Shown: positions 13,854-53,965, counted from the first letter of the stretch. The stretch is 64,000 bases of DNA from Sphagnum compactum (GCA_965153455.1 OZ234493.1:28944213-29008212); one strand, 5' to 3'. Numbers and translations: made by a program. The notes: generated by a model not told the origin, from the letters alone.

Positions 13854-13997
13854 TTGGGCCCGATTCCATCAACAATATCCAACTGTAAGAAACTTGGGTC
13901 CCTTGATTTGAGCCAGAACAATTCGTTGGGCTCAATTCCATCAACAATATCCAACTGTAAGAAACTTGGGTCCCTTGATTTGAGCCAGAACAATTTG
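13854..13997 (+). repeat. 72-bp tandem duplication of one LRR unit
   Basis: IPSTISNCKKLGSLDLSQNN is encoded twice in tandem with near-identical nucleotides. Confidence 0.95.
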
Positions 13998-16872: not shown

Positions 16873-16932
16873 GCTTGCTGCCTCTCCTCCTCGCTTGAGC
16901 TCCACAATCCTTCCCTTGTTCCTGCTGCCGGC

Positions 16933-17050
16933 AAACCCTATATACACAAAGCCGTGACGGAGCAGCGAGAGAGAAAGGGTCTATGTCGGGCCGGGTCACA
17001 TGTAAATACTACGTACCCGTTCGAAAGGGTCTGTGACGGCGGGCCCGCCT
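16933..17050 (-). promoter_or_regulatory. UTP11 proximal promoter/5'UTR with telo-box and site-II-like motifs
   Basis: AAACCCTA at 16933-16940, and GGGCCG / GGGCCC at ~16988 and ~17041. This combination is typical of plant ribosome-biogenesis genes. Confidence 0.5.
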
Positions 17051-30330: not shown

Positions 30331-32949
30331 TTTAAAACCCTGTCTGTATACACACAAGCCTATTTAACACCCTCAACACCTGTCTGTGTTAGTACCGCCT
30401 GACATGTTAGTCCCCAGTTCCTACAATGTGGGGTTGTTGTACAAGTCTAGTATTGCTACCAGCCTAGTTGGGTTCTTGATACCCATGTTGATACCAGGTG
30501 TCGACCTGTATACCAGGCCAACACCCATCATGTACAGGGCACATCCCCTAGTGTACAAGCCCATCACTAGGTTGTAAACTAGCACATGTGGGTCATTAGG
30601 TAGGTAGAAACTATCAGAATTTACACTTGTGACTAATTCTGCCATGTGCAATAACTTGAAAACCTACCTGCTGAATTTATGTGATTAGGGGTGGTAGAAT
30701 TTATTTTTGAAATCTACCATTCTAGAGATTTTAAAATGAAAAGTAACTGGAGACCTTGAAATTTTCATATCCATCCTTATCTCAACCACTTCTTCAACAA
30801 TTTTTTTAAAAAAAATTTGTTCGACAGAAAATTTGGGAAAATTTTGTTTTTCTAATGTAAGTTTGATTAAATTTTTTTTTTTAGGTGAGAAAATTCGCCA
30901 ATTTTTTTATAAAAAAATTGACTGAAAAAAAAAGCCCTGATCTCAACAGTAAAAATATAACACGAGACCCATGCCCTAACTTGTAAATAGGACACATTAT
31001 GTTGGCCACCTTTTATGGTTACCCAAGTCATTACTTTTATCCAGCCTAAATATGCTTTGTTACTTACCCAAATTGGAATTTTTACAAAGCCTATATTGGT
31101 ATAACTTTTACCTAGCTGAAATAAATTTGAGAAATTATTTATCAATTGGCAAATTGAAATCAATATACCCACCCAATGTGTTGGTTAGGGCATCCACAAT
31201 GACAACAAAATGTCCATAGATGAGTCATTCAAGCAAAATCTATCAAACATTTCAAACCTCTTACAACCTTCTTCTTTCTTTTTGTTTTTTCTTTCTTTTT
31301 GGGTGGCACAAATGGAAATCCATTGCAAAGAATCTCTTATAATTAGCTTTGGTATTCAAATCTACAACTAAACTAGATTAATAGAAAATCTATCAAATTA
31401 TTTAAAGTAAATAAGGAGATGGCTGATTAATGAAGAAGAAAGCTTGGTGTTGCAAACAGTATGAAAATGTTATGTTGAGAAAAAGAAAGGCTACCCAATT
31501 AAACAAGTTTATAATTAACATAATTGTTTTCCGGAAATTACTGTTGACAAAATCTTAGCAACACCACAATGCATGGATAGTTAGTTGATGAAAACATGTG
31601 AATGTCACTGAAAATTTTCCATAGTGACCATACAAGATCTCATCAATCTTGTGGGGTCTTTGCATCATTTCTGTAAATGCAAAACATAAAGGACTTGCAG
31701 CAAGGGTTTTTTTGTTTTTCCTTCATATTTGAAAACACTTCCCCAAGACAAAAAATGCATTTGTCATATTCGTGTAAACAAAATCATATACAAAATAATG
31801 CTGGGTAGTTAGCAGAGAATAAGGTGCCCACTCGAGGTGTACATTTATAAGCTAATTCGACGAAATCTGACACTAAGAAATTGGGGCCTAAGTTTTTGGT
31901 TTGATCTTCAAACTTGCAACAGTTTCATAAGGAACTCTCTCCATACTACTGTAACACTGCTGTCTGTCTCCTTTCTTGAAGTTGTTCAGTTGTTCTATTG
32001 CACACATTTTTGAATGTTTTTTTTGTGCTTTTCCCACTGGGGTCAATATGAGTTTCTTTCTCAAACATGAGTTGCTCATTGCTGGAAAACACTAATCACT
32101 CTATGCATCAAGTACTTATTCAATGATATTGTTTCCATATGAACATGGATTAGTGAACTGCACCCACATTTTGTACCTTATTTATCTTATTTACAAGAGA
32201 AAACAAGGTAGCTCTGTCACAAGAGGCCCTATCCTAAAATAATATATTATATTTAAGATTATATTATGAAATCATGGGATAAGAGTTTGTTGGCTTTATG
32301 AAGGATTTTAAAAATCATTTTTTACATTTGTATTAAGAATTTCTTTTTCTAGCCTTCTTAAATTCATTGTGCATACTTGAAAATTTCAACCATAGTTCCA
32401 TTGCTTTTCTTTTAATCATACAAATGAATATAAAGTTATAAATAATGATATTGTGTCAAAATTCAATCCAAGTTTTTCCCAAACAAATGTAAATAAGTTT
32501 TCATAATGTGCAAGAAGGTGAAACTAGATACTTAGATGTTTGAAACAAACATTAGTAATGAATGGATATCACTTAGATGAAAAGAGTTGGGAAAATTATT
32601 CACTTAATTTTTAGTCTCATTTCAATTTCAAGTTTAAGAATTTGACATTTCTTATCATTTTTGTTGTAACATTTTGGCTTTAGAATTTTCCTTGAAAGGT
32701 GTTTTGTTGTTGTGCTTGATGGGTGTACATGTGGGTAAAAAAACAGTCAATTTTTTTTTCATCTTGTGGTTGATAATTATGATTTTTTGTTTGCACATGA
32801 TCCATGAAAACTAATAAAAATATATAAATTTAGGCCACAAGGTGCCACCATTTTGGGTGTCATTAACTAGATGGAAAATGCAACATTCGTATGCTACATT
32901 TTAAAAAATGGAAGACGATAATGGTTTTTTGTTATACATAAGAAGTGTG

Positions 32950-35900
32950 TTTGGTAATTTGAATGCAATATAAATTGGCTTGTGAAAACCTAACAAATAT
33001 GCTTTTGTTACACTATATTTACATTCATTTCTAGGGACATTTGCCCATATATGGTCTAGTTAAGATCCAACTTTTGTGGTGCTTTCATTAAATTGTAATT
33101 TTAATTTGAATTTATTCATGAAATCTAATAGTTCTTGTTTATTTTTTCCATGGTTATTGTTTTTTAGAATGTCAACATTAAAATATCCCATTATGATGAT
33201 TGGATAATGTTTGGGAGACTGTTGAGTTATAATTTGAAGTTTGTTTAGGAATGTAAAACTAAACATGAATGAGCTTTATACACACATACAATATGTATTG
33301 CTTTTTGTGTATTAATATAAAAAGTTGCTACTACATATTTGGAACCATCATTAATCATTGTATTAAAAGAATCTAAGTGCATGTGTATGTCATACATCAT
33401 CATTAACCATGACCATCATAGATTGAAATATATAAATACTCCGATGAATTTATAAATTTGTGCACATCTACTGATGGATGGTGTATTTTTGTTTTCTATA
33501 AGACATAAGATATGAAACATTTGAAGGTTATGATCATGGTTGATGTCTTCATAATGTTGGCATAAAAAAGTTGTATTCAAGGTCTGTATAATTACATGAG
33601 AATTATGTAAATTCTTAAATTGAGGACTTACTGGTATCCAAGTCAAAATTGTTTTTAATATATTCATTTCTATATGTACTTTTGGATTCACATAAAAAAT
33701 TTCATGTTGGAAAGGAGTTAATAAAAATTAATTTTTTTTTGTTCGGATGTAAGATAATGATGTATATGTTAACCCATGTTTTAAACATTAGTAAGATGAT
33801 CAAAAGCCAATTCATTTAATGATAATCTTTGAGAATGATGGATGGTTTTTATTGTTGTAAGTTTAATTGGAAATTGAATCCTTGCTATGATAAATGATTG
33901 AGATTTACCAATTATTATATATTTGATGATAGGTTCAATTGGTGTCCATTTTGATTCAATGATATTATTATAATAATGATTGTATTTTACTTGGTCATTA
34001 TTACAAATCAATGGAAAGTTTGTAAGATGGTGGGCATGATTAATGATTAATTTCCATTGTTTTGAAAGTAAATGTGGGACCTAATGTATTAATGAACACA
34101 TGTTCATTATGTTTCTGCACAAGTTTAATTGTATAAAATAAATATGGAATAGTAAAATTATTGGGTGGTTGTTGATTACAAATTGAATTTCTAAATTGAA
34201 TATCCTTTGTATCTTTTGTTGCAGTGGGAGATTTGTTCAAAGTTTGTATGAAAACCATATCAGATTATCACATCACTTTATTTAATTCATAACATTGGAC
34301 ATATGTTTGCCAAAAATTTGGTGTTATTGCATTCACATTGTTTTTAATATTCTGAAAAATCTAACTATCTTTCACATGGGGTGCTTGATAAAAATCACTT
34401 GTCATGATAACATCCACACTATCAAAGAATTTCATTTGAATATGTTTTACAGACCTTAACTTATTGTCTATAACATTCAACATTCTAGCAACAACAAGTG
34501 ATATTTCATTTATCACAACAAGTTGTAATTGTTCATATCAACATCTAAACCTATTTAATGAATTTGTTGATAAGTTTGGTAGACTAGATAAGGATTGTTG
34601 GACAATTATGTTCAATGTTGAACGTATTGTTAAACCATCAATATTGAAGGCATCTTTATTTGTTGATGCCATAGGTAAAGCCTTATATTTTGTTAATTCA
34701 GAAGATATGTTTTTATTGTATAATCATAATAATCCTTGAATTGTAAATTTTAATGTAAAAGTTTTATTAATTCCAACACCCCTTGTAAAAACCAAAAAAA
34801 TAAATATATTATGGTATAATTGTTTTTTATGCATAACATCATCAAATATTAATCTTTGTTCTTCATTTAATTATTTAAGCAAATTATGATAATCAAATTT
34901 TTCCATCATCATAGAATTTGAAGATTTTGTGAAATTTTCATCTTCTAAAGTTTGTGATTTTTAGTATGATACATTATGTGGTTGAATCACAAAGTTAGAT
35001 CGTAAATCATATTGTTCAATATTGATTGTGTTTGTAATAGGAATTGCAAGACATGAATCATTTACTTCATTATCTATGTTTTCATTACAAATGTTAACTG
35101 GATGCAATAATTCTCATTTTGAATATATTGAATCATTCATTTCTTTTGTATTTGGATATGACATTTGGTAGTTAAAAATAGATTTAATTTTAAAATTTCA
35201 TCATGTTGTTGACAATATGCATCATGTCATGTTAAACTAGTTCCAAGTTTTGAATTTTTTAAAGTTCAAAATGGTGAATATTATAGAAATTGTTCTCTTG
35301 ACCAATTTTCAATATTTTTATATTTCTTATAATTTACAAACCTAATAATTTTGGGTTTGCGATGTTTTGAAATGTTAATCTTATAAAAATTATTAAATTC
35401 TACTAGTGATAAAGATTCATATTGATTAGGATGACTAATATATTTGTTTATGATTGATGAACACATTATATTAGTTGGATCAGGTTCATTTAATGCAAAT
35501 TGTGGTTTTAACACAAAAACACATTTTTCAAAAGGAGAAGCATTACTAAATTGAAATGTTTAAAATCAATGATATAATGGTAAAGAAAAACACAAAATAA
35601 ACAAGTTGTGTAACCATTTGTTGAGCATTGAAAAGACATTACCCAATTTTTGAATTTTTGTATTTTCATCTATATTATTTGCAAGACATTTTTGTATGAT
35701 AAAATATAATTTGATGTTATTGATTTATCTATTTTAGTCATATATGATGTGCAATATGTTGCAACTCCATATGGGTTTAAGATGAATTGAATATCTATAT
35801 TTCCAAACCACAAATGAGCTACACGTGTACTAAATGCATTAGTTTTTATGTTTTTAGGATTTTTGTTTTAAAAAAATGTGTTTTTTTTTTATTAATTTTC

Positions 35901-37750
35901 TTCTAAAATTTTATATATGAGTATTTTCATCAAGGTTTAAAAAATTTCAAAATTCAAAAAAGATATATCTTCATTTTTTATTTTATTTTAAAGTTTGAAA
36001 TATAGTTTTTGCTTGTGTATGGAGGCATTGTTGTGAAAATGGATAATTCCCATCTATTTGAAATGGTTTTACAATTTTTGTTTCATGCATGGGAGGTAAT
36101 GGATAATGAAATCTATAAACAATTTTAATTTTTTTTACATGTACATGTGTGTTGATGTTGTTGTGCATTTTGCAATGGATTTGGTAACAGTGATACATCA
36201 CAAGAAATAAACATGTCTACAAATCATTCAATTTCTTCATTTGCGCACCCCATACATATGAACATCTTTAATCCATAAAAGTCCATGGTCATGTTTGTTT
36301 CCACGATTTTGAAATTTAATGACAAAATACAAATTGAAAATGTGCCCAAAAAGATAATGGTCTTTTGTCATAAATTTGTGGAAAAAAGATGTTTTATGAT
36401 TGTAATACTTTACACATATGATAGGGTCGTTTCATATCAATTCTACTATATGAAGATATTGTAAATCTTTTATTTTATTTGGGAGATTTAATCTCGAAGC
36501 ATGTAATGTGTGTAAAGCTTTAATGAAAGGATCCCATAATCTTTTAGTATATGTAAAAGTGATAAAAAACGTTGGAGGATCAAGTTGCTTGATCATTACA
36601 AATAAATTATTTTGTAATTTTTCAAAATAATCATGTGAATTATGTAAGCCTTGTAAATCATGATTACCTAAGCATGATTTGAAAATATTGTTTTGGTTTA
36701 TCTCATACTTGAGAAGCTTTTAAGGTTCTACCACATAATTTTCCTTTTCATATTCGCACCCAACTCAAACTTATGACTTTTTATATATAAATTTTACCAA
36801 CTTTAAAAAAAAGGATACATATATTGGTTGAAAAATCCACAAATTTATGAAGTAATTCCCATTGAGTTATTTGTTAATATGAAAAATTTCTTGAGAATTA
36901 TCGAAGTTGGCCATAAAACAATGTTGGAAATTTTAGTTCTTTTGAATGCTTAGTTTTAAATAAACTTAGAAGGTGAAAATGTTGACTTGGGGCAATAAAA
37001 TATAATATTATTACAATCCATTATTTTTGGAGTTTCCAAAAAGTTATGTATTATCGAATCTATTGGTGTATAGTGTAATTATTCACTATTAAAATTAGAC
37101 TTATTAGATGATGCATCAATAAAATTAAAAATTTGGAATTCTAAATCCATATATAAAGTAAACAAAGTTGCCCATTAAAGATGAATGGTAACATTCAAAT
37201 CTTTCAATAATGGTGTCTTAATTAAATCTCATAAAACAATCATCACCATTTTGGACGAACATTTCTTGACATATAAGGCAATTCGTATTCAAAACGTTGC
37301 TTAAGAAACACACCTATTGTTGCATCATCATGTGATAAACATGGTAATATTGATTGAGTTTGATTCGTGTTTGTAAAGACATTAGTAAGATTACCATGCA
37401 TCCTATATTGCCCTTACCCATATAATTTATGAATTTGAGTGAAAACAAGACATAGTGAAATAAGACGTTTTTTTAATTGTGATAATTTTTTGACCGATGG
37501 AATGATTTTGTTTTTGGAGATACCATTGATCTTACGTAAACAACTTGTACATATGTATGATGTAAGGCTAGGTTTTATTTGAAAGTATGTAGAAAGTTGT
37601 TTTGATATTTTGTTTAAAAAATATTTAAGTTGTTTTTAAAAACATAAGCTTTCACAATTAAAACATGCAATTATGGGAACATCTTGGATTTTTTAATTAT
37701 AAATGTCAATGTATATTGATTTTTTTTCATTTTCCATTATATTAACATTA
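32950..37750 (-). pseudogene. Helitron RepHel (Zn finger-HUH/Y2 Rep-Pif1 helicase) fused to AP endonuclease
   Basis: IACFNC/YICTSC (~37.55-37.67 kb); MIKQLDPPTFFITFT; FQNRGNKHDHGLLW (~36.3 kb); RFHYPLPPM; NIDIQFILNPYGVATYCTSYMTK; TRGVGINKT; VVINEISLV; VIMTSDFYQAP; RIQFPIKL..KTIHHSQRLSL. Then APE motifs ILCLIE, IIMGYFNVDIL, STTK...LDHIWAN, HKPIYIAF (33.6-32.95 kb). Confidence 0.9.
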
Positions 37751-40700
37751 TGTTTTATTTTATTTGATTGAACATCGTGTTCCACAAAAATCGTTGTTTA
37801 GGAATTGGTTGTTTAACTTTTTTTAGAGTGCAATGAGTACATGATGATTGAACATTGTCATTTATGGAAGATTCATCTGATTTTTTTGTATACATATCAC
37901 AAGAAGAAATCTTGGGTTTTTCCTCTACCCAAATGCATTATGTTTTTAGTGAATTGGGACAAAGTTCATTAATATGTAAGTTACATGGTTTTGGTAAAAA
38001 AGGACTAATTGATTAACACATTTTTAGTGAAATGTTTTTTGGTTGTTTTGGACAGTGACATGTTGCATTAGATAATTTGTAATTTGAAAAAACTGACATG
38101 GATATTATGAGGTTTGAAGTTAATATGATGTGGATTAACATGTCACGTCATCATGTAACATTTTTAACCCTTTTTTTTTGTCACAAATTGTAAATTTTCA
38201 CAACATGTCGTGACAAAAATACATGCCTTGATTTAAAACTATTATTATTATTTGCGTTTGGTTTGGATTTTCTCAAAATATTTTGAAAATATTGACCATC
38301 ATCGTACATGTTTCATAAACCATATTTATACATGATAACATCAATGTGTCTACACATTACATACATATATGTACGAATTCATCAAGGTTTGAACACAAGA
38401 CTTCATAGAGATGCACCAAGGATTTCAACACCAAACCACTTCCAAATTTTGATGAAATAAAAAGAAAGTTCAACTTTATTATCTTTGACATGAAACTATT
38501 TAAGAAATTCAAACTATAACATACATTTTTTTTTTCAAAATTTATTCAAATGCTACAAATGAAAATATACAGATCTTGAAACTTATTCAATAATTATTCA
38601 TAAAAATAATTATAATTTATAATTATGCAATTTGAAAGGTTCAAAAGTAACTTAAAATAACATGTTATGAATAAAACAAAAAAATCTACAAATCATTTTT
38701 GTTTAAATTCATCTACAATCTTCATAAATGGAATTCAATTGAATGTGAATTCAAAAGTGTTTTCGTTAAATATTTAACAAAGATATTTTTTTGTGTAAAA
38801 TATATGTTCAATTTTTGAAGAGTTGTAAGTTATTTTTCTCAATACGATTATGTACAATATTTATTAGAAAAATTGTGATGTTATTCAAATTATAATCACC
38901 TATAAGTAGTTTTACTTACATTTGCTTATAGAAGAGTTACGGAATTACAAAATTATTTAAATCCTTCAATATTACCTTAAAAATTTATCAATTTTAAATT
39001 TGATAAAATTTCATATTTTTTTGGAAGAAAACCATTGTTGATGTTTCCCCCCTTTTAAATTGGCAAAAATTGGCCACTAAAAAGAACATTAATTAAATAA
39101 TCAATATAACCATTTTCTCTCAACATCATATTTGTAACAATATTAGTTATAGATAAAAATGATTAATTACACAACTTTAAAGAATATTACAACATATTAT
39201 TTATATTATTTTAAATTTTTTTTCCAATAATGTAGCAATACATTTTACATTTTAGAAATTAAAAAAACATAATTTGGTGATATTTTGGCATTAAAGAGTT
39301 GGATTACCTCCCCCCCCCCCCCCCCCTTTTAGTCAACAATTTTTTTTGTTTTATTTTTGGTGGCAAATTTTTGCAAGTTAGTGGTTCTTTTTGGGGGAAA
39401 AAAAAGAAAAAAAATGAAAATTCAAGGAAAAATTTCAAGGGTGGTCATTCATTCAAAAAAATAAAAATATGCTAATATAAATTTAAGGTGTTATATATTA
39501 GTTGTTGGGAAAAAGGTGTAATTTAATTACTTCTCAAATATGGTACTATTTATTTTAATATATATTTATAATTAATATAGATTATGTAATATTTATAATT
39601 TATAATAATATATGTTGGTGTAAAGATGTGTATATTTAAAAATTTAAGTAAGAATAGGGTGAGAAAATAGGTTTAAAAAATCATCTAATACAGTCCAAAA
39701 AATAAATTGTTTGATGCACATGGTTTAGAACTCTAACGATTAGTGACCCCTATGAGAATAATGCAATTTCAATAAATTTTTTAAAAGCTTTGAGATCACA
39801 AATTTGAAAGAACAAATAGAGAACAAAAAGATTATTCATAATGAATAATGATTAATAATTTCAATGTTAAAAACCATAAATAGTTCCAACATCGAACTTA
39901 CTTTAAACTTACTCCAACATGAATATATATAAAAATTAAAATTTTATAATAGGTTTTAGGACTTGTAGCCAAAATATTAAAAGAATTTAACAAATTAATA
40001 TCTTCATATATTGTCTGTAGCAAAAACATAACTATATTTTCTTATCAATAATCATTGTCATTTGAACAACACCACAAAAATAAAATAATAATAATGATAA
40101 TTCATTGATGTCATTATTATGAGATCACCATATTTTATGTTTTTATTTATTTATAATTAAAAATTTTCATCTCTAAATACTTAGACATAAACTTGTAACA
40201 AAAAAAACATAAAAACAAATGTTAAATCATGTCAACAATAAAAATAAAAATGTACCCCAAAAACATTAATTAAGATTTATATTTCTCATATATCAAGAAA
40301 TAAAATGGAGAAAGAATTTAAGCATTGTTTTCTGAGGTTTTGTTATTGTGGCATCATGAACAATTTGTAATAAAAAACTTGTCCAATGACGAACGAACTA
40401 GGGGAAAAACATAAATTTTTGTAAATGTACAAGTTTGAACATTAAATTTTTTAAATAAAAGGTCTACATGGACACTAGATTTTGTATATATGAACATTTT
40501 GACTTAATCTTTAATTCAAATATAGATGTGAAACGTAACAAATTTTTATACATCAATTTCAAGGAAATTATGGTGAGTGTAAAATGTAATTAGATAGTAA
40601 TGGATTTAACACATTCAAAATGAATTATTCAACTCATTTGCAAATGTTGATAGTTCAAGAGATGTGAGCTCTTTAGAAATTATTGCATGTGTTTTATTAA

Positions 40701-41100
40701 ATTATGATAAGTGTAAAATGCAACCCATGAGTAATGGTTTCAACATGATAAAAACGTACAATTCAATTCATTTACCATGTTGATAGTGGAAAGGATGTCA
40801 AAAAAATCACTAACCATTATAGTGCAATGTGTAAATAAAGTTAAATGCTACATAAATTTCCACATCAACAATTTGAATTTTTAAAAAAATAAAATAAGGC
40901 GACTTCTTGTGTAAGTGCAATGTGCAACTTGTGAATAACATTCTCCACTTGTTATCAAACCTTGAATCAACTTGTGCTAGATGTTAATAGTTGAAAAGTT
41001 GTTAACATAATGATTAAACAATATTACCACTCTTGTAAGGAATCTAGGGTTGAGATGTTTTCCATGTCAAAAAAATTTCCATTATTATAAAATCCAACAT

Positions 41101-41920
41101 TGTCGCAACCCCACTTTAAAGGAGTGTGAGGATGACATTCACACTCCCGAAACAGGGACTTGTGAGTTCTCCGAGACTCTCAAAAATTCAGAGTTTGATT
41201 ACAGGGGTCAAAACACCTTGCCTTAAGGTGTTCTTTATACCGTTGGAAAGCTCTTAAAGTGTAGATGTCGAAAATGGCCTCGCATGAGCCATTTAGACAT
41301 CTGCAGCACAAGTTGTGGTCAAAAGAAGGGCCGGGAGTCAAACTGGCAGTTTGACTCTCGACCACTAAAAGTCAGGAATCAACCCGACTCAGATGTGTGC
41401 AAGTGGAGTGCGACACACCGTTGGAAAGCTCTTGAAGAGAGCTACAAGTTTGCTCTAGACCTCATCCCAATCAGAGGTCTGAGCAAGGAGTTATGAACTC
41501 TCAAAGTCCCGGGAGTCCAAACCGAGACAGTTTCGAGATTCCTCCTTGGGAGTCCCGGGAAAAAGTGCCATTCGGATGCAGGTGCCGCGGAGTAACGCAG
41601 AGAATACTATATGGGGGAAGGTGGTGGCTTCCCTCGAGTCCGGGCCGTGGTGAGTCATGTGAGTCCAAGGTCACCCGTGGCTTGTCCCAACACTGAAAGT
41701 GCTTCCGATGTGAACTAACCAACTTGTTGGTTGGTTTGATGCAGGTTCGAGTAATTAAGTAAAGCTTGTCCCTCGCCCTAGTCTAATCCCGGAGCTTCAG
41801 CACGCCCCTCTACCCCTTTTAGTGCTCGAAGCTGGGAGCGTGCCCCAAGTTCCAAACAATTTCGTTGTTTGACTTCTTTGGACCCACCTTGGGTCTAACA
41901 AGGAACTTGGGAGCGTGTCA
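41101..41920 (+). mobile_element. Solo LTR (820 bp) inserted in the Helentron
   Basis: TGTCGCAACC...GCGTGTCA with AACAT TSD (41096-41100, 41921-41925). Homologous to 51263-52082. Strand is a relative label. Confidence 0.92.
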
Positions 41921-42699
41921 AACATGGAGGGAAAATTTGAGTGCTAATGAACAAGGCAATCATTATTTTCACTATGGAAATTATGCACAAATAATTTTTT
42001 AAAAATTACACTTGTTATTTGTGCACAATGATAATTATCAAATAATGGTCAAATTGGACAACTAGTTGTAATGGGTGGTAGTGAAAAAACCTAAAAAACT
42101 TTCTTATGTATATTTCATGTGATTCATAATTTGTGATCTTGTTCTTTGAATATTTGGAAACCTATTAACGAATTTCAATGTTTATTCAAAACGAGTAAGA
42201 TTTGGATAAACATCTAATACTTCAAAAATAATATTGTCAGAAAATGCCTAATCAAATTTTTTTTTCTTTTCTTTTGTGTCATATTACGATCAAAAATTAG
42301 ATTTTGGAAATGTTCCATTTGAACTTTAGGAATTTTTTTAATTTTGGTTTTAGAAATTAAGGTGGATGGACTAGGCAAAATCTCATAATTGATAGGGAAA
42401 TTTGTATTAGTTTTCATTTTTTTGTAAATATTGAATACGATTTTTACTTTGTTTTAAGTAATATTTGTATTGCAAGAAATGTTGAATAGGGAAACAACAT
42501 ATTGCCATTGTGAATCCCAATTTTTTTCAAAATGTCCATTATTGTAGAGTCAAAATTTTCATTCCAATAGAAACACGTAGTTAGTTGTGAGAATTGAATT
42601 TAAAGTTTTTGCATCCCTAATTTTGAAAAAGATGGAAAATCATCTAAACCTATGTGAAATTTGGAATCATTCATTTGAAAACTAGGTGAAGACCGAGAT

Positions 42700-43215
42700 A
42701 GACCATAACATATTCAATTACCTCAAAATGTTGAAAGTTGTAAACTATATGTAAAGGGATAGATTGAAAATCCCTTCCACATCAAGACATAATGCATTTT
42801 GATATTTTATTCCAAATGTAAATTGGCCTTTGTAAATATTCAACTATCCAAAATATTGTAGTGAAATCTCCCCACAAACGTCCCATTGTAACACATAATG
42901 CCATTTTTGTCACATACTGATGTTCATTTATCACCATACCTTGATGTAATTTTTTTTAAAACTTGGATTTAATTCTCAAATATGACATTGTTGAATTTTT
43001 TTTGTATTCAATAATAAACATTGATTTCAATGTGCCATGTTATTTTGCCTCAATTGAAGAAACAACAAACGATTATTCAATAAATAAAATATAGAATCAA
43101 AAAGATAGTTGCTTATTTCATATTTGTATGTTGAAACAAATGAAGATCATAGGAATGCAATATACGTTCAAATGATGAATCAACAAGATTTAATAAAATT
43201 GTTTCCATTATTATG
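42700..43215 (-). pseudogene. OTU-like cysteine protease domain (Helentron cargo), decayed
   Basis: SNYLFDSIFYLL...QLRQ (decayed GNCLF motif), LWGDFTTIFWIVEYLQRPIYIW, PLHIVYNFQHFE (His loop). Confidence 0.7.
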
Positions 43216-43319
43216 AACTTCAATTTAATCCAAATATATAAATAATAAAAATCACCTTCTCACACATACACATTCAAAAAGACATGGAATCAATGATTCA
43301 TTTAAAAAATTATTTACAT

Positions 43320-43682
43320 TGAATTGTTTTTTTACAACTTCTTGGATTGAAAAAATATTTAAATATAAAAAATGCTTATATTGAAAATTTATTTAAATAT
43401 AAACAAATGGTTATATTGAAAAATTATTCATATTAAAAATTTACTGTATTAAAAAACTAATTATACTGAAAAATTGCTTGGATCAAAATTTGATTGGATG
43501 GAAAAACTTCTTGGATTGAAAACTTGTTTATATTGAAAAATGAAGAATTTCTTACATTAAAATATATTGAAAAAATTTCTTACATTAAAAAACTATTGGT
43601 ACTTAAAACTGCTTGCATTGAAAAACTAATTGGATTAAAAAACCATTTGTACTTTAAAACTACTTGTATTGAAAAATCGCTT
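43320..43682. repeat. Degenerate ~18-bp minisatellite
   Basis: Recurring (TTGG/TTAT)ATTGAAAAA units. Confidence 0.65.
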
Positions 43683-43899
43683 TAAACATCCAAAAAGAAG
43701 AAATCACAAAAAGTATGTTATAGGATGTTTTCATATATATGTCCAATATTTGTATATTAATGGTAATCATAGAAAGGTTGCACAAAAACTATAATTAACA
43801 ATTGTAATGTTTAAGAGGGATTCTATTTAAAAACTTACTTCAACTCATCAAAGTGAAGCTTGCGTTTCACATTATGTTGGACATCATCATTAAAACTAA

Positions 43900-46260
43900 T
43901 TGCCAAAGGAGGAACCAACCCCTTAGCACTCAAATTTCTTTCTATTTATGAGATAAATTATTGTATGTCTTCTTGGAAACCAACAAGGGAGATGTGCCCG
44001 ACAATTTACATTTACCGCAAACAAAAATTGAAATAAGGAACTGAACTTGTTTTAGATGAGCCAAATTAAGGAATTCAAACTTTGTCATATGCACAATTGT
44101 TTCGAGCAATTTTCCTTCAATGGTTAATAATATAGGTCCATTTTTTGTTGTAGTGGGAACCCCAAATAAAACTTGATTTATGAACCTTTGATTTTGAATG
44201 ACAAACATTATAATGAACATCACCCATTGAGTAAATGATGGCATTTGCTACATGACAATTTCCACACATTTTTGGAATGAAAGTGCAGTAAAGCTAATTA
44301 TGGACAACACCTTAGTCACCTAAAGAATAAAAACAAAATATGTTAAAATAAAAAAGTAATGAAGAATGCAAAAAAAAAAAAAAAACAAAACAAAAAATTA
44401 TAATGAAAAGAAATTGAGGAAAAGAAAAGGATTTTTCCTTTAGGAGGGACATAATTAAATGGCCATTCAATTGTTAAAAAAAAATTCCTTGGGAAAAACA
44501 CAATCAGATCACCTTCCGAAGGTTATTTTTTTATGAAAAAAATTAGTTTTTTTTAAATTGGGAAGGACATAATTGAGTGGCCGCTTGATTGTTTTTAAAT
44601 TTTTTTCCCTTAGGGGCACAATTAGGTGGCCTTAAGGTGTAATCAAGTGGGCACCCGACTATTTTTAAAAAAAGGTTTTTTTGTTCCCTTAGGGACACAA
44701 TCGGTTGTGTTTTTAAGGTGTAATTAAGTGGCCACCTAGTTGCGTCCCTAAGGCCCAATTGGGTGCCCATTCGATAAATAATAATATAATAATAATAATA
44801 TATTATTAATATTAATTTTCAATTATTTAAAAAAATATTTAAAGAATATTTAATTATTTACACATTTTTCATTATTGTTTAGTATAAATGACTTATAGAT
44901 GAACATTTGGCATCATGAAATATGTTTCCTTTAATTTGAAAAAACTTTCAAAATATTTTTGAAGAAAATGAAAGGAAAGGAATTTACCTTTTTTAATGCA
45001 AGTCGAGCAATTTATAATTACCATGCAACCTGAAAAATGGGTTTGAGTAGCCTTATCAACAACCTTTGTGATAATTGTGTACTATTGTGCTCTCAAATAT
45101 TGATATCCTTTGGATGTTGTTGGCACATTTTTTATCAAGACCATAACACATTGGCATCCATTGTTTATTTTTAAAAATTGTTCATATTTTGTTTCAAAAT
45201 TATTGCCAAAAGTAAGAACATTTTGGTCAAATTCGTCTTTTTCATTTGTAATCAATAACTATTTTTCACTTTTGGGGTCAAAACTTGTAATTAGGAGCCA
45301 AAAGGATTACTTTGGAAAAGGACTACATGTCCTTTTTCCCCAAAAAAACTTTTACATGCAAATGAATTTTTTGTAGCTTGTTCTAAAAAGTATTTAAAGT
45401 TTTAAATTTCCGCATTTTAAAAAGTATGAGTGTTTTTTGAATGTGGCTAATATGTTTTTATGATTTATATTTTTTTCATTGAATTTTTTATATTATATAA
45501 GTCCTTTTAATAGTCCTTTGCAAAATTGTCTCCATCTAACACATAAGTTGTACATTTTCAAACGTCCTAAATTAAAACCAAAATTTAAAATTAGATCAAA
45601 TGAATTTTTACTCTAAGTTCTTAAACATTCATATGAGGGAAAAATGACTAACGTACCATGATTATTATGGTTTTAAATGGTAAAAAAAAAAAAAAAGTTT
45701 GATTTTGACTGATTATATTTAACATCCAACGCCCTTTTTGGCTCTTAGTTACATTTTTGACCTTTTGTTATTCCCTCCTCCCCTTACACAAACAATGATG
45801 ACAACAATAATAATAGAACTTTTATTTTGAAGAAAATTTCTAAATTCTCAAATGGAACCATGTGAAAAAACATGGGAACCAATTTAGGTTCAAAAACAAT
45901 GATTGGTGACACAATGGTTATCGATTCAACTATAATGACAACATGTATGTCATCTTTCTCAAATCCCCTTTTGGACTTTGATTCAATGTCAATAATTTTG
46001 ACGTTCATAAATATGTCTTTATTCAAATACTATTCATGCATATCTATTTGTATGAGGTAATTTGACCTTGAAAGTGACTATGATTAGAGTTGCCCTATCC
46101 AACAAATCACAATACAAATATGCATAGCTTGGATCTTCCATGTTTCTATTTGCAATTTAATCAAAGGTGCCATACCTATTGAACACCTTTGCTTCAAATG
46201 CAACATCTTTAACTCCAAAATCCAAATTACTCACTGCAACAACTAATCAAACTTCTTTCA
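43900..46260 (-). pseudogene. Three-exon RPA70-like (three OB folds plus Zn ribbon) gene carried by the Helentron, decayed
   Basis: Exon ~46260-45830: YLYCDLLDR..VTFKVKLP..YLNKDIFMNV..IESKSKRGFEK..VVIIVESITIVS..LVPMFF. Exon ~45330-44988: KxLLITN..VMVLIKNV..GYQYL. Exon 44319-~43900: CGNC...NVC then GPILLTIEGKLLETIVHMT. AG acceptor at 44321-44320, GT donor at 44987. Confidence 0.6.
44440..44772. repeat. Imperfect tandem repeat within the RPA-like intron
   Basis: Recurring GGGAC/GCACAAT...GTGGCC...CCCTTAGGG units. Confidence 0.6.
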
Positions 46261-46768
46261 CTAAAACAGTAGCCATTGTGCAAGAAAAAATTTAAAAAAT
46301 ACCAAAATGAATTTGACAACCAACACACAAAGTAGTAGAAAAATGGGATTTAGCAAAGGCACATTTGAAATAACTCAAGCTTGTAAAACACATTAATACA
46401 AAATGAAAGTTTAAGTCAAACACAATGTTTGTGCTAGTTAGAAAGAGAACTAACAAACATACAATGTAATATTTATTATGGGACAAAAAAGCCTAACTGA
46501 AACCTTAAACCTAACCTAAACCTTTTACGAATGTTCTTTGACTTTAACTAATTTTGACTACATGTTTGACTACAACGTAACAATAAATAATCATATTTAT
46601 GGTTCAGTAGCTAAGTTATGGTCTAATAATGAATAAGGTATCCTATAAATTTTAATTATGCAACTCATGGGTACATTGAAACCCTAATTGTCTCAATTCG
46701 AATTTGAAATACGACATTTTAACCCTAAACTTTTCAATTGTTTAAACATTTTTTTCATTTTCACTTCA

Positions 46769-46798
46769 ATATATATATATATCTATATGGTATGTATG

Positions 46799-46844
<46 letters not shown>

Positions 46845-46845
46845 A
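46769..46845. repeat. Compound (TA)n/(TATG)n/(CA)n microsatellite
   Basis: Direct reading. Confidence 0.9.
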
Positions 46846-48844
46846 ATATATATTGGTAAACATCAGCTTTTTCATCATGTGCAAGAAAATTTTGGTTACA
46901 CAAAAAGTTGAAATTGAATTGTTTTCCAATTTTTGGTCAAATGTATTCAGTCTTTGATTTTAAACAAGATGTGTTTTTCCTTAAAAAAATTTAATTAATT
47001 TTTTCTGTTGAAATTTTTGCCATGTTTGGTGGCCCACAAAAAATGACATTGATTTTACTATAAAAAAAAGGGGCAAATAGGGAATATCCCCCTCTTTTTT
47101 TCCCAACCACCCAACCCCACCCAAAAAATAACTCCTTAAAATAAAACTCCTTACCCCTCCCACTACCACATAATAAAACTCCTTTATTTTTCAAGTTCAC
47201 TAAAACCCCACATCTAAAAAAACAAGCCCTTCAGAGACAGGAAAAAAATTAAATATTTAAAACCCCTAGGCTCTCCTCACCCAACTTTATTTTAAAACCT
47301 GACACCTAGACTTATCCATTCAGCGTACTTTTGATTCTCCAGCCCGTATACCCGCTCAAAAGGTATTCCCACAATGTCTTTGTAGGACAGAGCCAACAAA
47401 CAAAATGGTATTCCCATGGTATGCACCACCACAAGGTATTGTGTATGTGTAAAAGCAGCACTGAAACCTTGCCATATTCTAACTACAAGATTCACTAGGG
47501 GAAAGGGTAAACCTAATATCACACATCCGTACCCTCATTAGTGCAGACTGTTATTCCCTATCCTTCCTAGCAAACAAAAAACCTACTCTCCACCAATCGT
47601 CCTTTCACAAGAGAGCACTTGGGTTCTTGTAAATGAAATAGCTATCTTGGGTATAATGTGTGCAATGGTAGGGTCGACCTATTTTTTTTGAAGCCTAGAT
47701 CTATTTAGCCATTTGGCTAAAAGAGAATTTAAAATAGCTAAAAATATGTGTTTTTTCTTTTGGGTTTTTTTAGTTGCCACATTTCTGAAGTATTTTTTGT
47801 TTTTGAAAAAACATCTCTAGATTTCTCTATTGATGTAGCCCAAAAACCTGATGGAAACTTAAACTTCGTTTTACTTTCATATGTTGTTGTTAAACTGTAT
47901 TATGGATTGTTCACCAGTTTGGCTATATCAGAATTACACAAAAAAGAAAAAAAAGAAAAAAAAGGGAAGAAAAGCCTCTGGTGTGCATGCTCTAGTGCAT
48001 CCATTGGAGGTTTTTTTCTGGTGCAATGAAGTGTGCACAATTATGGGGTAATTGTAAAGTGATGAAGTCAAATTACATAAAATTAGTTGGAGGCCACAAA
48101 TTTTCATATTCTAATCATATCTTTACAGATTCTGAAAATTGGGTTTCATGACCAAACATAACATAAGACTTAGTTGTGGATGAACCTCAACCGAGTTCAT
48201 ATTTTGGTTTCACCTAGGTAACCCATTCTATAGGAAATAGGTCTCATATATAGGTAGATAGGTAGGAAAATAGGTAACTACTAGGTAAGTAGATGGTTTA
48301 TACATAAGTAAGGGCTGCTTTTATTACCTACCTTCTAACTAATAACCTGCTTGTGGGTTGTTAATAGGTAGGTAGGTAGGTTGAACAAACAAAAGCCAAC
48401 TGAGCTAACCACCATGGTTAGCTAGGGAACTGGAGCCCAACAGAAAACTGTTTCCTCATCACATACCATTCATCCTTCATGGTGCACTGGTGGGTACTGG
48501 TTCACTGTGGCCGTTGGTTGGTGGGTTGCTTGCCTTCTAATTTAAATCATGTTTTAGTACAACAAAGTCTCCTAGTGGCGGTCGGCACTGCACAATAGTG
48601 AGCATGCGGGCTTAAAAAAAAATCAAGACAGATGCGGTCGGATATGGCAGATTCACAACAGGGTGGCCCATAAATCATAGCTTTCTTGCAGCACAAGAGT
48701 GGCATAAGGTGAAGGCAAACTGTCCGGCCACTGAGCTTGGAGAACGCGCTGAAAAAACTTGCATTTTTCACATGTGCACAACTCAAATATGACAAACGAA
48801 CAGCACACCACCAGCCTTCTGGCAGTTCGGGTAATTACTCTGTC

Positions 48845-48965
48845 GACTTTGATGTGGTTGCGCCACATGAAGTCCTCAAGTGATTTCAGATTAGCAAATT
48901 TCTTGACTTTGATGTCGCTGCGCCACGTGAAGTCCTCGAGTGATTTCAGATAAGCAAATTTCTTG
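48845..48965 (-). repeat. 60-bp tandem duplication inside an unidentified ORF (48653-49168, -)
   Basis: KKFAYLKSLEDFTWRSDIKV / KKFANLKSLEDFMWRNHIKV. Confidence 0.9.
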
Positions 48966-50088
48966 GCCACGACGCTTCTCACAACTTCTTGCATTTTTCC
49001 CTCGCTCAGTTGTCTGAGTACCTTTGCATGAATAAAATGATCATTGGGGGTGGGGGGGAGGAGGGGGCCGGCAAGCATCTCATGTGTTTTGTAAGAATTT
49101 TGTTCATAGCTAAAGTTGTGATCATCCATCGGAAGATGTGAAAAAAAAGTGGCAATCATAGGTAGCAAGATTTAGCCAAATCTGGCTATAAGCCAGATAT
49201 GAAATATAAAATATTTATTCATCCTTCAATAATGTTTTTTGGGCTACAAACTGAAAACCCAAATTTAAAAATAAATAAATAAATAAAAATCTGGATAATT
49301 TTCATTTTTATTTCCTCAATTCCAAAATCACTTCATTTTTGTTTTAAAATTTTTAAAATTTCACTTTGTAGCAAAAGTTTTGCCCATTAATAAAGGTTGT
49401 ATGTGACCCACATGAAGTCTCCAGGCCTTCAAGGGTGAACCAGCACCTACACTGGTACCATGGTAAAACCCTCAAAAAAATTGGTGGTCTTGTAAACATT
49501 TTAAAATATTTTAAAATATTTCGTCCTTAAAACCAAATCACAGGTCTGAGTCCAAATTTAACATTTCTTGGGTTCAATATAGCCACCAAGAGGCTTCCCT
49601 CACACAAGAAAGTGAAGGGAGGGAATCCTAGGAAGGGCCCTCTAACCTGACCCTCAAAGACTAGGTGAACTCTTTCTATTTTTCCACCTACCCACTATTC
49701 CCCCCCTTTATACTATTCCCTTTGATGACTTCTGGAGGAATGTTGTTGTTTCAATTTATATTATATTTTCCCATTTAAAAAATATTTTATTTGTATATAG
49801 TATACAAGCATAATTTGGTAAACAAAAATTGTCTAGGTCAATCTCATAGAGAGTGTAAAGTGCCTGCTTTAACCCAACAATGGAGTCAGATAGCCAAGGT
49901 TAAAAAACAGAATGCCAGGATTTTACTGGGGTTGGGACTAAGGTTAAACCAGTCAAACCCTGTGGTAGAAGAGTGCAGCCCAGCTTTTTTTTTTTTGGTG
50001 AACAATCATTAAAAGGTGACACCAAAAAAGGGCTTGCGATAAGGCGGTTGGAAAGAAGGGCCCCTGATTTCAGAAATTTCGTCTAAAG

Positions 50089-53000
50089 CAATTGATGCCA
50101 AGTGGCAACATCGCCACAACGTCTCCATCCCTAAGCCCTAAATCGCCTGTCTCTCTCCCTTAGCAACAAGGCTTTCGCCACTTCTATCGCCATCACTAGC
50201 AACTTTTCACCATACAAACTACAACTTGCAAAGCTCCATCGACAACAATGGCAATGCAACTACAATAACAAATTGCCAACAGTAATTTTACTAATAAATT
50301 TTTAGGGTTACATGAATTTTGGGCATCCATATTTTAGAAAATGGGCGGTTGTAACTTGTATTAGTGATTTGGTAGAAATCAAGAATGTCGTAATCTATAT
50401 GTACTGCAATGCAATCAATGTGCATTAGTTATTTTTGTTAAAGTTTTCGGTAGGTTGATGGATTTTGAGAGCTTGTGGTTGTTAGTGGTGGATATAGCGT
50501 ATGAGGCTTGACCAATGGATTTATGATAATGGGGTTGTTGGCCTCAAGTGTAGCCGTTTGATGTAATTGTGAAAGGCCAAGCATGTTGCAAGACTCATAA
50601 TTTTGACTTAGGTTCTCGTTCAACCCTAATTTCGAGTGTGTTCACTATGCACAGAAAATGGAGGTATGTCATTAGGCAATGGTCACTACTATTTTTGCTT
50701 TGAAATTTCGATTTTATATGAGAGTGGCAAGAGATTGAAGTTGCATCCAAATTCTTGGTTCTGAGTTTTGAATCTTGATCCAATATTCATTATTTGATTT
50801 CTGCAGGTAGATGTGGAGTTCGGACTCTGAATTGTGGTTTTGAATTTAGAAATTAAGGTTTGTCATTTCTCTTTAATCTCCAAGCTTTTGATTGCATCCA
50901 AATTCCAGAGTCTGTAGTTTTTGGTTTTGATTCCTATCTTCAAAACATTTTTCGATCAATATAGGGTTCAAATTTCAAAGTTGCACTAGAGGGTTTGAAC
51001 TTCAATTTTTCAATTTTTAACTTCTTGGACCTTGGTCTTTTTTTTCAAAACCAAATTAGAGTTTGTTGTTTTTTTCAAATTATTTCATAACTCCATAGTC
51101 CAAATTCCATTTGTTATCTTTGTTGTTTTTTCGTGAATCTTATTTCAATTTTCAAACTTGGGTCAAAGTCCAATTTTAACATTCATGGCCCCTCCATAAA
51201 TCCCTAAAAATCTCAAATTCAAGCCCATCTTCCCCCTTTCTTCACTGGCCCCTCAAGATGAGTGACGCGCTCCCAAGTCCCTTGTTGAACCCACTTGAGG
51301 GTCCAACTATGTAGAGTTGTGGAAAGTTGGGACTTGAGGGCCGCTCCCGACTTCCAGCACTAAAGAGGGGTAGAGGGGCGTGCTAGAAGTCCCGGGATTA
51401 GACTAGGAAGAGGACAAGCGTTTCACCTACTCAAATCTGCATCAAAACCAACCCCAAGTTGGTTGGAACTCATTCTGCACCCTTTTGGTGTTAGGATAAG
51501 CCACGGGCTAACTTGAACTCACTTGACTCACCACGGCCCGGACTCGGGGGAAGCCACCACCTTCCCCCATATAGTATACTCTGCGTCTCACCGCGGAGGC
51601 TACATCCGAATGGCTCTTTTTCCCGGGACTCCCAAGTTGGAGTCCCGAAACTGTCCCCGGGTTGGAGTCCCAGAACTTTGGGAGCTCATATCTCCCGGCT
51701 CCGACCTCCGATTGGAGTGAGGTCTGAACCAAAGTTGTAGCTCTCTTCAAGAGCTTTCCAACGCCATGTCGCACTCCTTCAGGCAACGTCGGGAAAGGGT
51801 CGATTCCCGACTTTTAGTGGTCAGGAGTCAAAGTTCCAGTTTGACTCCCGGCCCTTCTTTTGCCCATAACTTGGGCTACAAATGTCCAAATTGCCAATGT
51901 GAGGGCATTTTAGACATCTACACTTCAAGACCTTTCCATTGATATAAAGAACACCTCAAGGCGAGGTGTTTTGACCCCCTGTAATTGCTTTTGAGTTTTC
52001 AGGAGTCCCGGAGGACTCCAACTTCCCACTTTTGGGAGTGTGAGCTTCACCCTCACACTTAGCCCAAAGTGGGGTTGCGACAATGAGGCTAGTGTTGCAA
52101 CTCCCCCCAAGCCCCTGCCATCTATTAGTTGTGTGGTTGTGTCACATGATGATGATAGAAGCAAAAATGTTGTTGTTGATTCAACTAGAACAGCTCTAGA
52201 TGGGGTGAAAAGGAAATTGTATGAACATGCACAGAAGTTTCAAGACACTTGGACCACTTGGTTGCCATGGGCAAAGTCGGTCTTTGATGACAAGGGTCAA
52301 ATCCATCAAGTTTGTTGTATCGTGTGTACCTTTATGGAAGGCAAAGAAAAACTGTTGGCCCCCAAATCGGACACTTTCTTGAAACACCAAAGTCGTCGCA
52401 AGGTTAAGGAATATAGGCCTGGGGCTGATGCATGTGGCTTTTTCTTCAACAAAGATTCCGTCCATGTGAAGAATGAAAGATGTTACACTATTACCAATTG
52501 CCCTTTTGTCTTAGACCGCTTGCAAGTTGATGATCTATCTAAGGAAAGATGGAAATACGTCCAATTTGTTGTTGTCTGTCATCTTTTTGCAAATGGTTGT
52601 CTAATGATTGATTGTGAAAGCTTGAGAGACTTGTTTCAGCTATTGAAAGTGAAATTTATTTTTTGAAAACATTGGACTAATGGGTCTGACTAGGGGATGG
52701 CAGAAGTCATGCACAAGGTTTTGTTGGAAGCCATTAAAGTGGCATTCATAGTTGCTTCCTTTATCGTGGTCAATGCAGACAAGGTTGTTGCAATTGACAA
52801 CACCAAGTGGTTGTTAATCCATTTATACATGGTGTAGTAGTGGAGGAGGAAACCCATTCTCCTTTGCGTGGAAATTATCGATATGTTTGCCACTTTCAAC
52901 AACATATTTGTTCTTATGTTGAAATGTTTGCTTGAATTTGGGGGATTAGGGTTGGAGGAGCTTTGTGAGAAGCTGGTCAGCATTGGCTACGATGATAGTA

Positions 53001-53965
53001 GTGTGTTCCGAGGCCACAAGATGGGGGTAATCTAGCAATTTAAAAAGAAGGTTGCTCCTTTTGTTACTGGGGTGCATTGTTTTTTTCACAAGACAAACCC
53101 CGTTGTGATCATTCTATCGGATGTCCCTTTTGTACATCAGCTTGAGCTTCTCCTATAAAGTTTGTATGCTTTTTTTGCACATAGTTTGAAGAAATTTGCA
53201 AAATTTCAAAAGTTGGCTGATTTCCTCCAAACCAAGGGGAATAAGCCTCTTTGAAATGTAAAGACTCGTTGGATCTCCTTGTTATTTCCAGTTGAATGGG
53301 TATACTCAGAATTTTGTCCTCTCATTGTTAAAATGCATGAAGAGAACCAACGGAATGATGTTGCTGGAAAGAACCTAAAATTATTGTGTGACATGGAGGT
53401 CATTCTAGGGTTGCCATATATCCTCCCTTTGCTCGAATGTGTTCATGTTTTGATCCAGGTTGCAAAAGGCAGAGATGTTTTTGTTTGTGACTTTGTGGAA
53501 ACTCTGAAGGGGGCCCAACAAGAGCTTTACCAGCTGTATTGTGACCCATACACCAAATTTGAAGACCCAACTTTTGATGATTTCAATGCTATTGAAACCC
53601 TTACCAATTCCAATCTCCCAATGGAATGGTTTTTTGATCTCAACAGCGGAGAGGATTATTTGCCATTTTCTTTTGTTAGCCACAAGTATATTATATACTA
53701 CAACAATGATGATGGTGCTGGTGATCCTCAACCTATCACCAGAATTGCATTCAGTCAAACATTCAATAAGATGAAAGATGAGTGCAAAAGTGTAGCCTCA
53801 GGCTTGGTGTTTAAACTAAAAAAGTGAGTCCTAGAGCATGAGATGATGATTGTTTTGGGTGTTGTCTACCCCCAGTTTTGGGCTACAAATATTCTAGAGG
53901 TTGAGAGCAGTTTTTACTCGCACTTAAATGTCCTTAAGGCAACTTTTTGTGTGTTTCGTGTAATT
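50089..53965 (+). mobile_element. hAT-superfamily (ZNF862-like) DNA transposon, decayed and 3'-truncated
   Basis: Transposase ~51185-53965: WLPWAKSV..C.VC..LLAPKSDTFLKHQ, KHW...MAEVMH, NADKV..IDNTKWL, GYDDSSVFRG..GV, GVHCFFHKTN, NVKTRWISL. Possible left end CAATTGATGCCAAGTGGC (uncertain). Confidence 0.82.
51263..52082 (-). mobile_element. Solo LTR (820 bp), same family as 41101-41920, opposite orientation, inserted in the hAT transposase ORF
   Basis: TGACGCGC...GGTTGCGACA with ATGAG TSD (51258-51262, 52083-52087). Confidence 0.92.

Follow-up and report, generated by a model that had tools for sequence, protein, structure and literature searches.

Does this genome hold a complete, self-contained Helentron, or what is left of one? 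The question is raised by a 64,000-nucleotide stretch of Sphagnum compactum DNA (GCA_965153455.1 OZ234493.1:28944213-29008212; the whole of it is called the window below), in which a sequence-only reading had recognized an apparently complete multi-gene Helentron at 32201-46490. In this study, we report that positions 32200-47400 (minus strand, 15.2 kb) very likely represent a single ancient and inactivated copy of a family of Helentron/HLE2 rolling-circle transposons in a plant genome. The copy is an old decayed relic, though a well-preserved one, and a new member of an element type that was already described, as HLE2 elements of land plants, including endonuclease-bearing ones, have been in print since 2024 according to the cited portions of the HELIANO report (PMC11417382).

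The transposase gene was identified through a protein search seeded from the Rep part of the element, in which 5 of 2438 candidates reached E <= 0.001. The highest-ranking one (E 4e-57) was P0001, an intact protein of 2126 aa that carries in one frame, and in this order, the Pfam domains OTU, DUF6570, Helitron_like_N, PIF1 and Exo_endo_phos. Its alignment to the window by tblastn consisted of 12 collinear minus-strand high-scoring segment pairs (HSPs) with a mean identity of 42%, residues 16-168 corresponding to 43137-42659 and residues 428-2122 to 37767-32916. In Pfam searches, the window translation exceeded the cut-offs for Helitron_like_N (36252-36704, 54 bits vs 28.9), PIF1 (34016-35029, 47.6 bits vs 25.9), Exo_endo_phos_2 (32916-33248, 28.7 bits vs 27.4, collinear with endonuclease residues 1922-2093 of P0001) and DUF6570 (32.2 bits vs 24.3). 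It must be noted that these scores depend on the piece searched: three whole minus-strand frames of 4900 aa, with X at the stops, gave only Helitron_like_N (46.5 bits) and DUF6570 (26.5 bits) and missed PIF1 and the endonuclease, which were recovered from shorter pieces cut to the P0001 HSPs. The HUH motif, in the form HDH, and the YCTSYMTK motif are both present in open reading frames (ORFs) of the window. Since the translation passes the cut-offs for four domains, the minus-strand order zinc finger, Rep (HUH, YxxSYMTK), Pif1 helicase and endonuclease that had been read from the sequence is correct. When P0001 was compared with the PDB, only Pif1 helicases were matched (18 sequences), with no Helitron transposase among them. 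The OTU call is likewise supported by homology to P0001, whose own OTU domain (residues 24-139) scores 28.4 bits against a cut-off of 23.3; the corresponding region of the window has 4 stops, and a Tyr is aligned to the Cys of the P0001 motif GDCLFDS, possibly the catalytic Cys.

The state of the gene is that of a relic and not of a complete element, because the alignment to P0001 contains 42 stops per 1756 columns, successive HSPs are separated by at least nine frame changes, and residues at conserved places are altered: besides the Tyr just mentioned, VINE replaces VLDE in the helicase and GYFNVD replaces GDFNVD in the endonuclease, at places whose functional labels are presumptive. The longest stop-to-stop frame within the element is 103 aa. 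The guanine plus cytosine (G+C) content is 27% over 32-47.4 kb and 36-40% in the flanks. With its stops, frame changes, changed key residues and two nested insertions, the copy is dead, interrupted and incapable of transposition, and the description of the locus as an apparently complete, self-contained module has to be abandoned.

Both insertions were delimited by comparison with other copies of the family. These were obtained by a back-translated search of a metagenome collection with the endonuclease end, which found 109 relatives; 80 loci (given here with L numbers) were kept and fell into 48 groups at >=97.5% identity. All 80 are decayed, and the 25 that cover at least 1200 residues of P0001 have 30-65 stops each. 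The element region is repeated in all four runs mapped (reads plus contigs, from four organisms); with Rep as the reference, depth is about 2-4x higher across the 3' 2.6 kb, and the flank bins in the raw-read run have 0-3.4 per orientation.

The larger insertion is a segment of 4.2 kb. It can be assigned to the window copy because position 42105 joins ~37897 directly in seven distinct copies (L004, L010/12, L034, L035/36/39, L049/50, L058/62 and L074-76); at least the first 1.2 kb of the segment is also present in the loci with the same flank as the window. Without the segment, about 0.7 kb separates the OTU region from the zinc finger downstream, an arrangement like that of P0001. An unknown ORF had been placed between OTU and Rep; that stretch is mostly the 4.2-kb insertion and is therefore not part of the family. 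The second insertion, a 490-bp miniature inverted-repeat transposable element (MITE), is missing in L056, where 45764 joins 45273, and is found elsewhere and inverted in L024 and L025-27; depth is raised over its bin. Inside the 4.2-kb segment, 41155-41921 is a very high-copy and G+C-richer repeat, with a depth of 163 per orientation at 41218-41868 compared with at most 27 elsewhere in the element. Copies of it in either orientation occur in L001/2, L010, L015, L025/26, L028, L030 and L079/80 too, and its frames gave no Pfam match.

The 3' terminus was well delimited by the copies. Among 72 blastn HSPs between the window and the loci over 32300-32600, 34 end at 32197-32203 (mode 32201/32202), and the alignments to copies at 23 different sites stop within 32197-32211, after ...CTTGTT. 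The window itself reads ...CCTTGTT, finishing at 32202, with two further T. A consensus of 27 rows (the window itself, 22 paralogues whose flanks are unrelated, and 4 loci sharing the window's flank) reads ...AGGACAGAGCCTCTCGTGnCAGAGCCACTTGTT, beyond which the sequences diverge; among the window and the 22 paralogues, 16 of 23 have T as the base after CTTGTT. The 3' subterminal inverted repeat (subTIR) is located at 32225-32235, as AGGATAGGGCC in the window and AGGACAGAGCC in the consensus, and is followed by a possible 5-bp stem, GTGGC aga GCCAC in the consensus, 7-8 nt from the end. Read depth steps from ~0 at 31453-32103 to ~22 per orientation at 32104-32754. The boundary at 32201/32202 with CTTGTTTT, as proposed from the sequence, is thus the one at which copy alignments end, after ...CTTGTT plus a T run.

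Two further observations concern the flank beyond this end. A stretch of 36 nt (32140-32175), found once only in the window, occurs with other neighbours in ~400 reads of run X21, whose consensus to its left has a 12-nt palindrome that could not be found in the window; the stretch probably marks the border of another abundant repeat. In addition, L011 has ~365 extra bases just past the 3' end (7095-7460), in the same place as in L014, L055, L023 and L003, which are missing from the window at ~32118-32136 and represent either an insertion in these flank-sharing loci or a deletion in the window.

The 5' terminus lies further out than had been supposed. The window, L056, L042/L044 and L024 all start to resemble each other at 47400, where the minus strand reads TTTGTTGGCTCTGTCCTAC... 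There, TTTGTT is followed by the 5' subTIR GGCTCTGTCCT at 47384-47394, within a small palindrome (CTCTGT cct ACAAAG in the window, with ACAGAG in L056). Reverse-complemented, the 11 nt of GGCTCTGTCCT are identical to the 3' consensus AGGACAGAGCC, so that the consensus subTIRs, from 4 copies at the 5' end and 27 rows at the 3' end, match at 11/11. The sequence-only reading had set this end at 46490, on a subTIR matching at 10/13; L056 aligns straight through that position (45764-46636), the four copies start about 910 bp beyond it, and the 10/13 match is a matter of chance, being reached or exceeded by 63% of random pairs drawn from this DNA (190 of 300). Position 46490 falls in the 5' untranslated region, of which 46289-46636 and 46863-47023 are common to L056 and which is missing from L042/L044. 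A generic inverted-repeat scan gave 360 pairs, all of them AT-rich noise and none at the element ends. None of the four copies having both ends shows a target duplication. L056, L042/44 and L024 are internal-deletion derivatives, with both ends kept and most of Rep and the helicase gone. Canonical Helitrons (HLE1) have 5' TC and 3' CTRR ends. The element has neither, its ends being TTTGTT... and ...CTTGTT, and it carries the endonuclease and DUF6570; the assignment to Helentrons made in the earlier note holds. The cited parts of Thomas et al. (2014; PMC4067079) describe Helentrons as having subTIRs and a palindrome at the 3' end, with T runs, insertion into TT and repeats in the centre, and DUF6570 is an HLE2 marker in those of the HELIANO report (PMC11417382).

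Upstream of the transposase gene, the remnant of a small gene with two OB-like domains (46228-45862 and 45264-45043) and a candidate start Met near 46283 is interrupted by stops and one frame change. A word-seeded protein search with its frame gave 0 matches among 1508 candidates. A full HMMER scan gave 185 representatives at E <= 0.001, nearly all short fragments, the longest of which, P0122 (268 aa) and P0088 (232 aa), map to the two domains on either side of the MITE. P0122 has weak Pfam matches to tRNA_anti-codon and OB_MEIOB_N. In a feature search of the ESM Atlas, the ten best named matches were all OB/RPA clusters (scores 0.91-0.95), a lead and not a test. Pfam revealed no Rep_fac-A_C (DBD-C zinc ribbon) in the window or in the relatives, and the family alignment shows no conservation of the C..C that the window has at 44896-45081. 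In the PDB, sequence searches made with the gene frame and the profiles A1 and A3 returned nothing except one chance row (ribosomal L8, E 0.2), and Foldseek gave no match at E <= 0.001 with AlphaFold2 models that were poor (pLDDT 41.7 for A1 and 52.4 for A3) and uninformative on the fold. Judging from its relatives, the gene probably encoded an RPA-like single-strand binder with two OB folds. The "RPA70-like" label given to it before is weak: Pfam gave no match on the window pieces, support comes only through relatives (a DUF223 match just below the cut-off and the ESM Atlas matches), and no Rep_fac-A_C or zinc ribbon was found.

In three distinct paralogous copies (L056, L042/44 and L025-27), the OB-like gene accompanies the other parts of the element, with order and orientation unchanged; most of the loci stop short upstream and are uncountable in this respect. 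A lack of co-occurrence had been named beforehand as a refuting result; the OB-like gene, the repeat block, OTU and the Rep-helicase-endonuclease segment do occur together in other copies. Likewise, the overall gene order agrees with that first read, being collinear with intact P0001 and the same in other copies. The central tandem repeats, common to L035/36/39 and L056 by blastn, are also where they had been noticed, their period being 16-17 bp and not 18. Also inside the element, 44312-44818 (minus strand) is a low-complexity stretch with a loosely repeated peptide-like motif, A/T runs and a depth of ~1-4 per orientation, partly common only to L035/36/39 and L074-76. The features of the element are collected in Table 1.

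Table 1. Features of the Helentron relic, in window coordinates.
Feature	Position	Strand	Basis
3' terminal region	32200..32275	-	End of copy alignments, 23 distinct flanks
C-terminal AP-type (apurinic/apyrimidinic) endonuclease; GYFNVD vs GDFNVD in P0001	32916..33781	-	Pfam Exo_endo_phos_2; P0001 residues 1835-2122
Pif1-like helicase; Walker A GINKT, Walker B VINE	33799..35029	-	Pfam PIF1; P0001 residues 1364-1829
HUH/Y2 Rep domain (HDH, YCTSYMTK), broken by stops and frame changes	35670..36719	-	Pfam; ORFs; P0001 alignment
Zinc-finger-like CxxC...CxxC and DUF6570	37252..37767	-	Pfam DUF6570; P0001 residues 428-616
Nested 4.2-kb insertion, not part of the family	37898..42104	.	Direct joint of 42105 to ~37897 in seven distinct copies
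OTU-like protease region, decayed	42659..43137	-	tblastn, P0001 residues 16-168, 47-48% identity
Central tandem-repeat block, period 16-17 bp (also read as 34, 50)	43346..43676	.	Tandem Repeats Finder (TRF)
Remnant of two-domain OB-like ("RPA-like") gene	45043..46283	-	tblastn of P0088, P0122, P0009; frames
Nested 490-bp MITE with ~30-bp terminal inverted repeats, splitting the OB-like gene	45274..45763	.	blastn vs loci
5' untranslated region, containing the end first proposed (46490)	46289..47332	-	blastn of window vs loci
True 5' terminus	47378..47400	-	Start of similarity to L056, L042/L044 and L024; unrelated flanks upstream

It must be considered that several points weigh against this account. 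With regard to the genes, neither RPA nor OTU was matched when Pfam was searched with 101 minus-strand ORF pieces of the 37.7-46.5 kb region, and the window pieces gave no direct OTU match; of the profile check that had been suggested, Helitron_like_N, PIF1 and Exo_endo_phos_2 are above their cut-offs on the window, and OTU and Rep_fac-A_C are without a match there. Only one of 50 scanned relatives of the OB-like gene, P0122, gave an OB-type match (DUF223, 23.5 bits, under the cut-off of 24.6; E 7.2e-5), and the OB/RPA assignment, reached only through relatives, is weak. With regard to the ends, the window's own true subTIR pair matches at 10/11, which 46 of 300 random pairs equal, and at 11/13, with 15-18% of random pairs as good; the case for the subTIRs rests on the copy consensus and on position, not on the window pair alone. 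For the 5' end there are only four independent copies, the window and three others. Of the 27 rows, only 8 retain 4-5 Watson-Crick pairs in the 3' stem, and the window retains 3. No empty site was found among the related loci, because those that share the flank also carry the insertion; insertion into TT is presumptive, and the number of terminal T assigned to the element is approximate. Finally, part of the frame changes between HSPs could be old introns and not frameshifts.

Other explanations of the locus were weighed as well. A complete, self-contained and potentially autonomous multi-gene Helentron at 32201-46490, bounded by a T run and a 10/13 subTIR, agrees with the observed gene order and 3' end; however, with no frame above 103 aa, 42 stops, at least nine frame changes and two nested insertions, with L056 aligned across 46490 and the copies beginning at 47400, and with 63% of random pairs reaching 10/13, it is barely credible. 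A chance juxtaposition, in which a different repeat, made up of the OB-like gene and of what lies upstream of OTU, would merely adjoin a 5'-truncated Helentron, could explain the uneven depth (1-4 per orientation at 43171-45123 vs 5-27 over Rep to endonuclease). It would also suit the cited sections of the HELIANO report (PMC11417382), where, within HLE2, RPA is confined to subgroup a and the endonuclease is nearly confined to subgroup b, which has land plants among its hosts. We consider it very unlikely, since 5' end, OB gene, repeat block or OTU, helicase/endonuclease and 3' end follow each other in the same order and orientation in L056, L042/44 and L025-27, a 5' terminus with a matching subTIR lies upstream of the OB gene, and Helentrons having an RPA ORF, and occasionally OTU, are drawn in the cited part of Thomas et al. 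(2014; PMC4067079).

A recent horizontal arrival from an animal is suggested by the fact that Helentrons are best known from animals, by the mixed hosts listed for subgroup b in the cited part of the HELIANO report (fishes, molluscs, cnidarians and land plants; PMC11417382), and by the closest intact relative, P0001, whose source is not named. It is nevertheless extremely unlikely in view of the age and the relationships of the family. The same insertion is seen in L011/14, L055, L023 and L003, whose flanks are collinear with the window over 4.7 kb and 91-93% identical (7-9% divergence) and whose element is 84-88% identical; the insertion therefore predates the split from them; the paralogues, 73-88% identical, are all decayed. 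With P0001 as the query, 70 proteins were found at E <= 1e-20, the nearest with 40-46% identity and including one named protein, from the conifer Cryptomeria japonica; the named animal proteins were 26-32% identical to P0001. Identity to the window reading is 42% for P0001, 35-37% for P0156-P0161 and 26-31% for the animal rows. In a FastTree tree of 80 rows and 1581 columns, with SH-like (Shimodaira-Hasegawa-like) support only, the window and 8 metagenome copies group together (support 100) as sister to P0001 (99), inside a clade of 16 rows (100) whose only named member is the conifer protein, and the animal-named rows (20 rows from 16 species) fall outside it; the tree comprises only relatives found with P0001, the window and locus rows were constructed on the coordinates of P0001, and many rows are composition-biased. 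The conifer protein, P0161 (uncharacterized protein LOC131876217), is 35% identical to the window reading, and its precomputed Pfam list is without the endonuclease. In place of an animal origin, it is conceivable, if rather doubtful, that the family belongs to an old plant-resident lineage of endonuclease-bearing Helentrons shared with the conifer, with OTU fused to the transposase and its own very diverged RPA-like OB gene.

Read from the copies, the ancestral Helentron would have had a T-rich 5' end with a palindromic subTIR, followed by a small two-domain OB-fold (RPA-like) gene and tandem repeats of ~17 bp. One long gene would then have encoded an OTU-like protease, a zinc finger with DUF6570, an HUH/Y2 Rep nuclease, a Pif1-type helicase and an AP-type endonuclease, before a 3' part of ~0.7 kb with the matching subTIR, a short stem and ...CTTGTT(T). 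By analogy with the family, in an active element Rep would nick one strand at the element ends, the helicase would peel the strand off 5' to 3', the OB protein would coat the single strand, the endonuclease would nick a T-rich target, and the strand would be pasted in without target duplication.

The surroundings of the element also contain other genes and repeats. A plant-type leucine-rich repeat (LRR) receptor-kinase-like gene lies in several frames at 12631-14975 (+). Among proteins of solved structure, its ORF, 17 kb from the element, matched plant LRR receptor kinases best (E 1.7e-100, GSO1, vs 1e-24 for animal SHOC-2), by which a plant host is supported. Roughly 0.10 of the words sampled is found in three runs labelled "moss metagenome" and in several other organisms, which is not taken as evidence of host or habitat. 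An unbroken Utp11 ORF of 261 aa (204 bits) was found at 16198-16980 (-). Another high-copy repeat, at 47728-49000, has ~43 reads per orientation, many length variants and an opposite-strand joint at 48168/48479. Open frames of 223 and 190 aa at 51995-52663 and 53255-53824 (+) look transposase-like by eye and gave no Pfam match at E <= 0.001. Retroelement remains are present at 1012-1896 (+) and 3285-3878 (-), with a PHD-finger ORF beside an ORF that is integrase-like by eye (no Pfam match) and a reverse-transcriptase ORF (RVT_1, 40.7 bits).

For annotation, the value of this relic lies in the exact ends, subTIRs and gene map that it provides for one plant Helentron family, and it illustrates that nested insertions and decay can pass for extra genes. 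The biological gain is modest: a worked example is added to the 2024 report of land-plant HLE2, and no long-standing question is opened. There is a hint of an old plant-resident clade in which endonuclease, OTU and OB gene travel together; if this were true, Helentrons would have been present in early land-plant genomes and would not be late arrivals from animals. A contrast with elements best described in animals and fungi, as had been drawn for this locus, is out of date, as the HELIANO report, in its cited part (PMC11417382), records HLE2 for 13 of the 74 land-plant species and for six of eight classes, with mosses, one lycophyte and two conifers listed in its table. A full-text literature search found no other paper tying Helentron or Helitron2 to mosses.

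Compared with known systems, the element is closest in its organization to Helentrons and HLE2 subgroup b as described in the cited parts of both papers (PMC4067079; PMC11417382). They have in common a Rep-Pif1 helicase with a C-terminal AP-type endonuclease and DUF6570 upstream of Rep, optional OTU-like and RPA-like genes, subTIRs (the 5' one palindromic), a possible short 3' stem, T-rich ends, central tandem repeats and deletion derivatives that keep the ends. The subTIRs of the window family are spaced 6 nt (5') and ~22 nt (3') from the ends, and those of mite families 2-4 nt and 38-60 nt in the cited part of Thomas et al. (PMC4067079). The differences are the fusion of OTU to the N-terminus of the transposase, seen in P0001, an OB gene that is too diverged for the Pfam RPA models, and the presence together of an RPA-like gene and an endonuclease, RPA and endonuclease being in different HLE2 subgroups in the cited part of the HELIANO report (PMC11417382). 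HelenSM92 of Sphagnum magellanicum (PMC11417382, cited part) is likewise a land-plant HLE2 with short terminal inverted repeats and T-rich (TT) sites, but it is described with a captured GIY-YIG domain and not with OTU, endonuclease or an OB gene, a distinction drawn from its description and not from sequence. With the canonical plant Helitrons (HLE1), the element shares the HUH Rep and Pif1 helicase, the rolling-circle logic and, probably, an accompanying RPA-like OB protein, whereas it is distinguished from them by its endonuclease, DUF6570 and subTIRs and by ends that are not of the TC/CTRR type.

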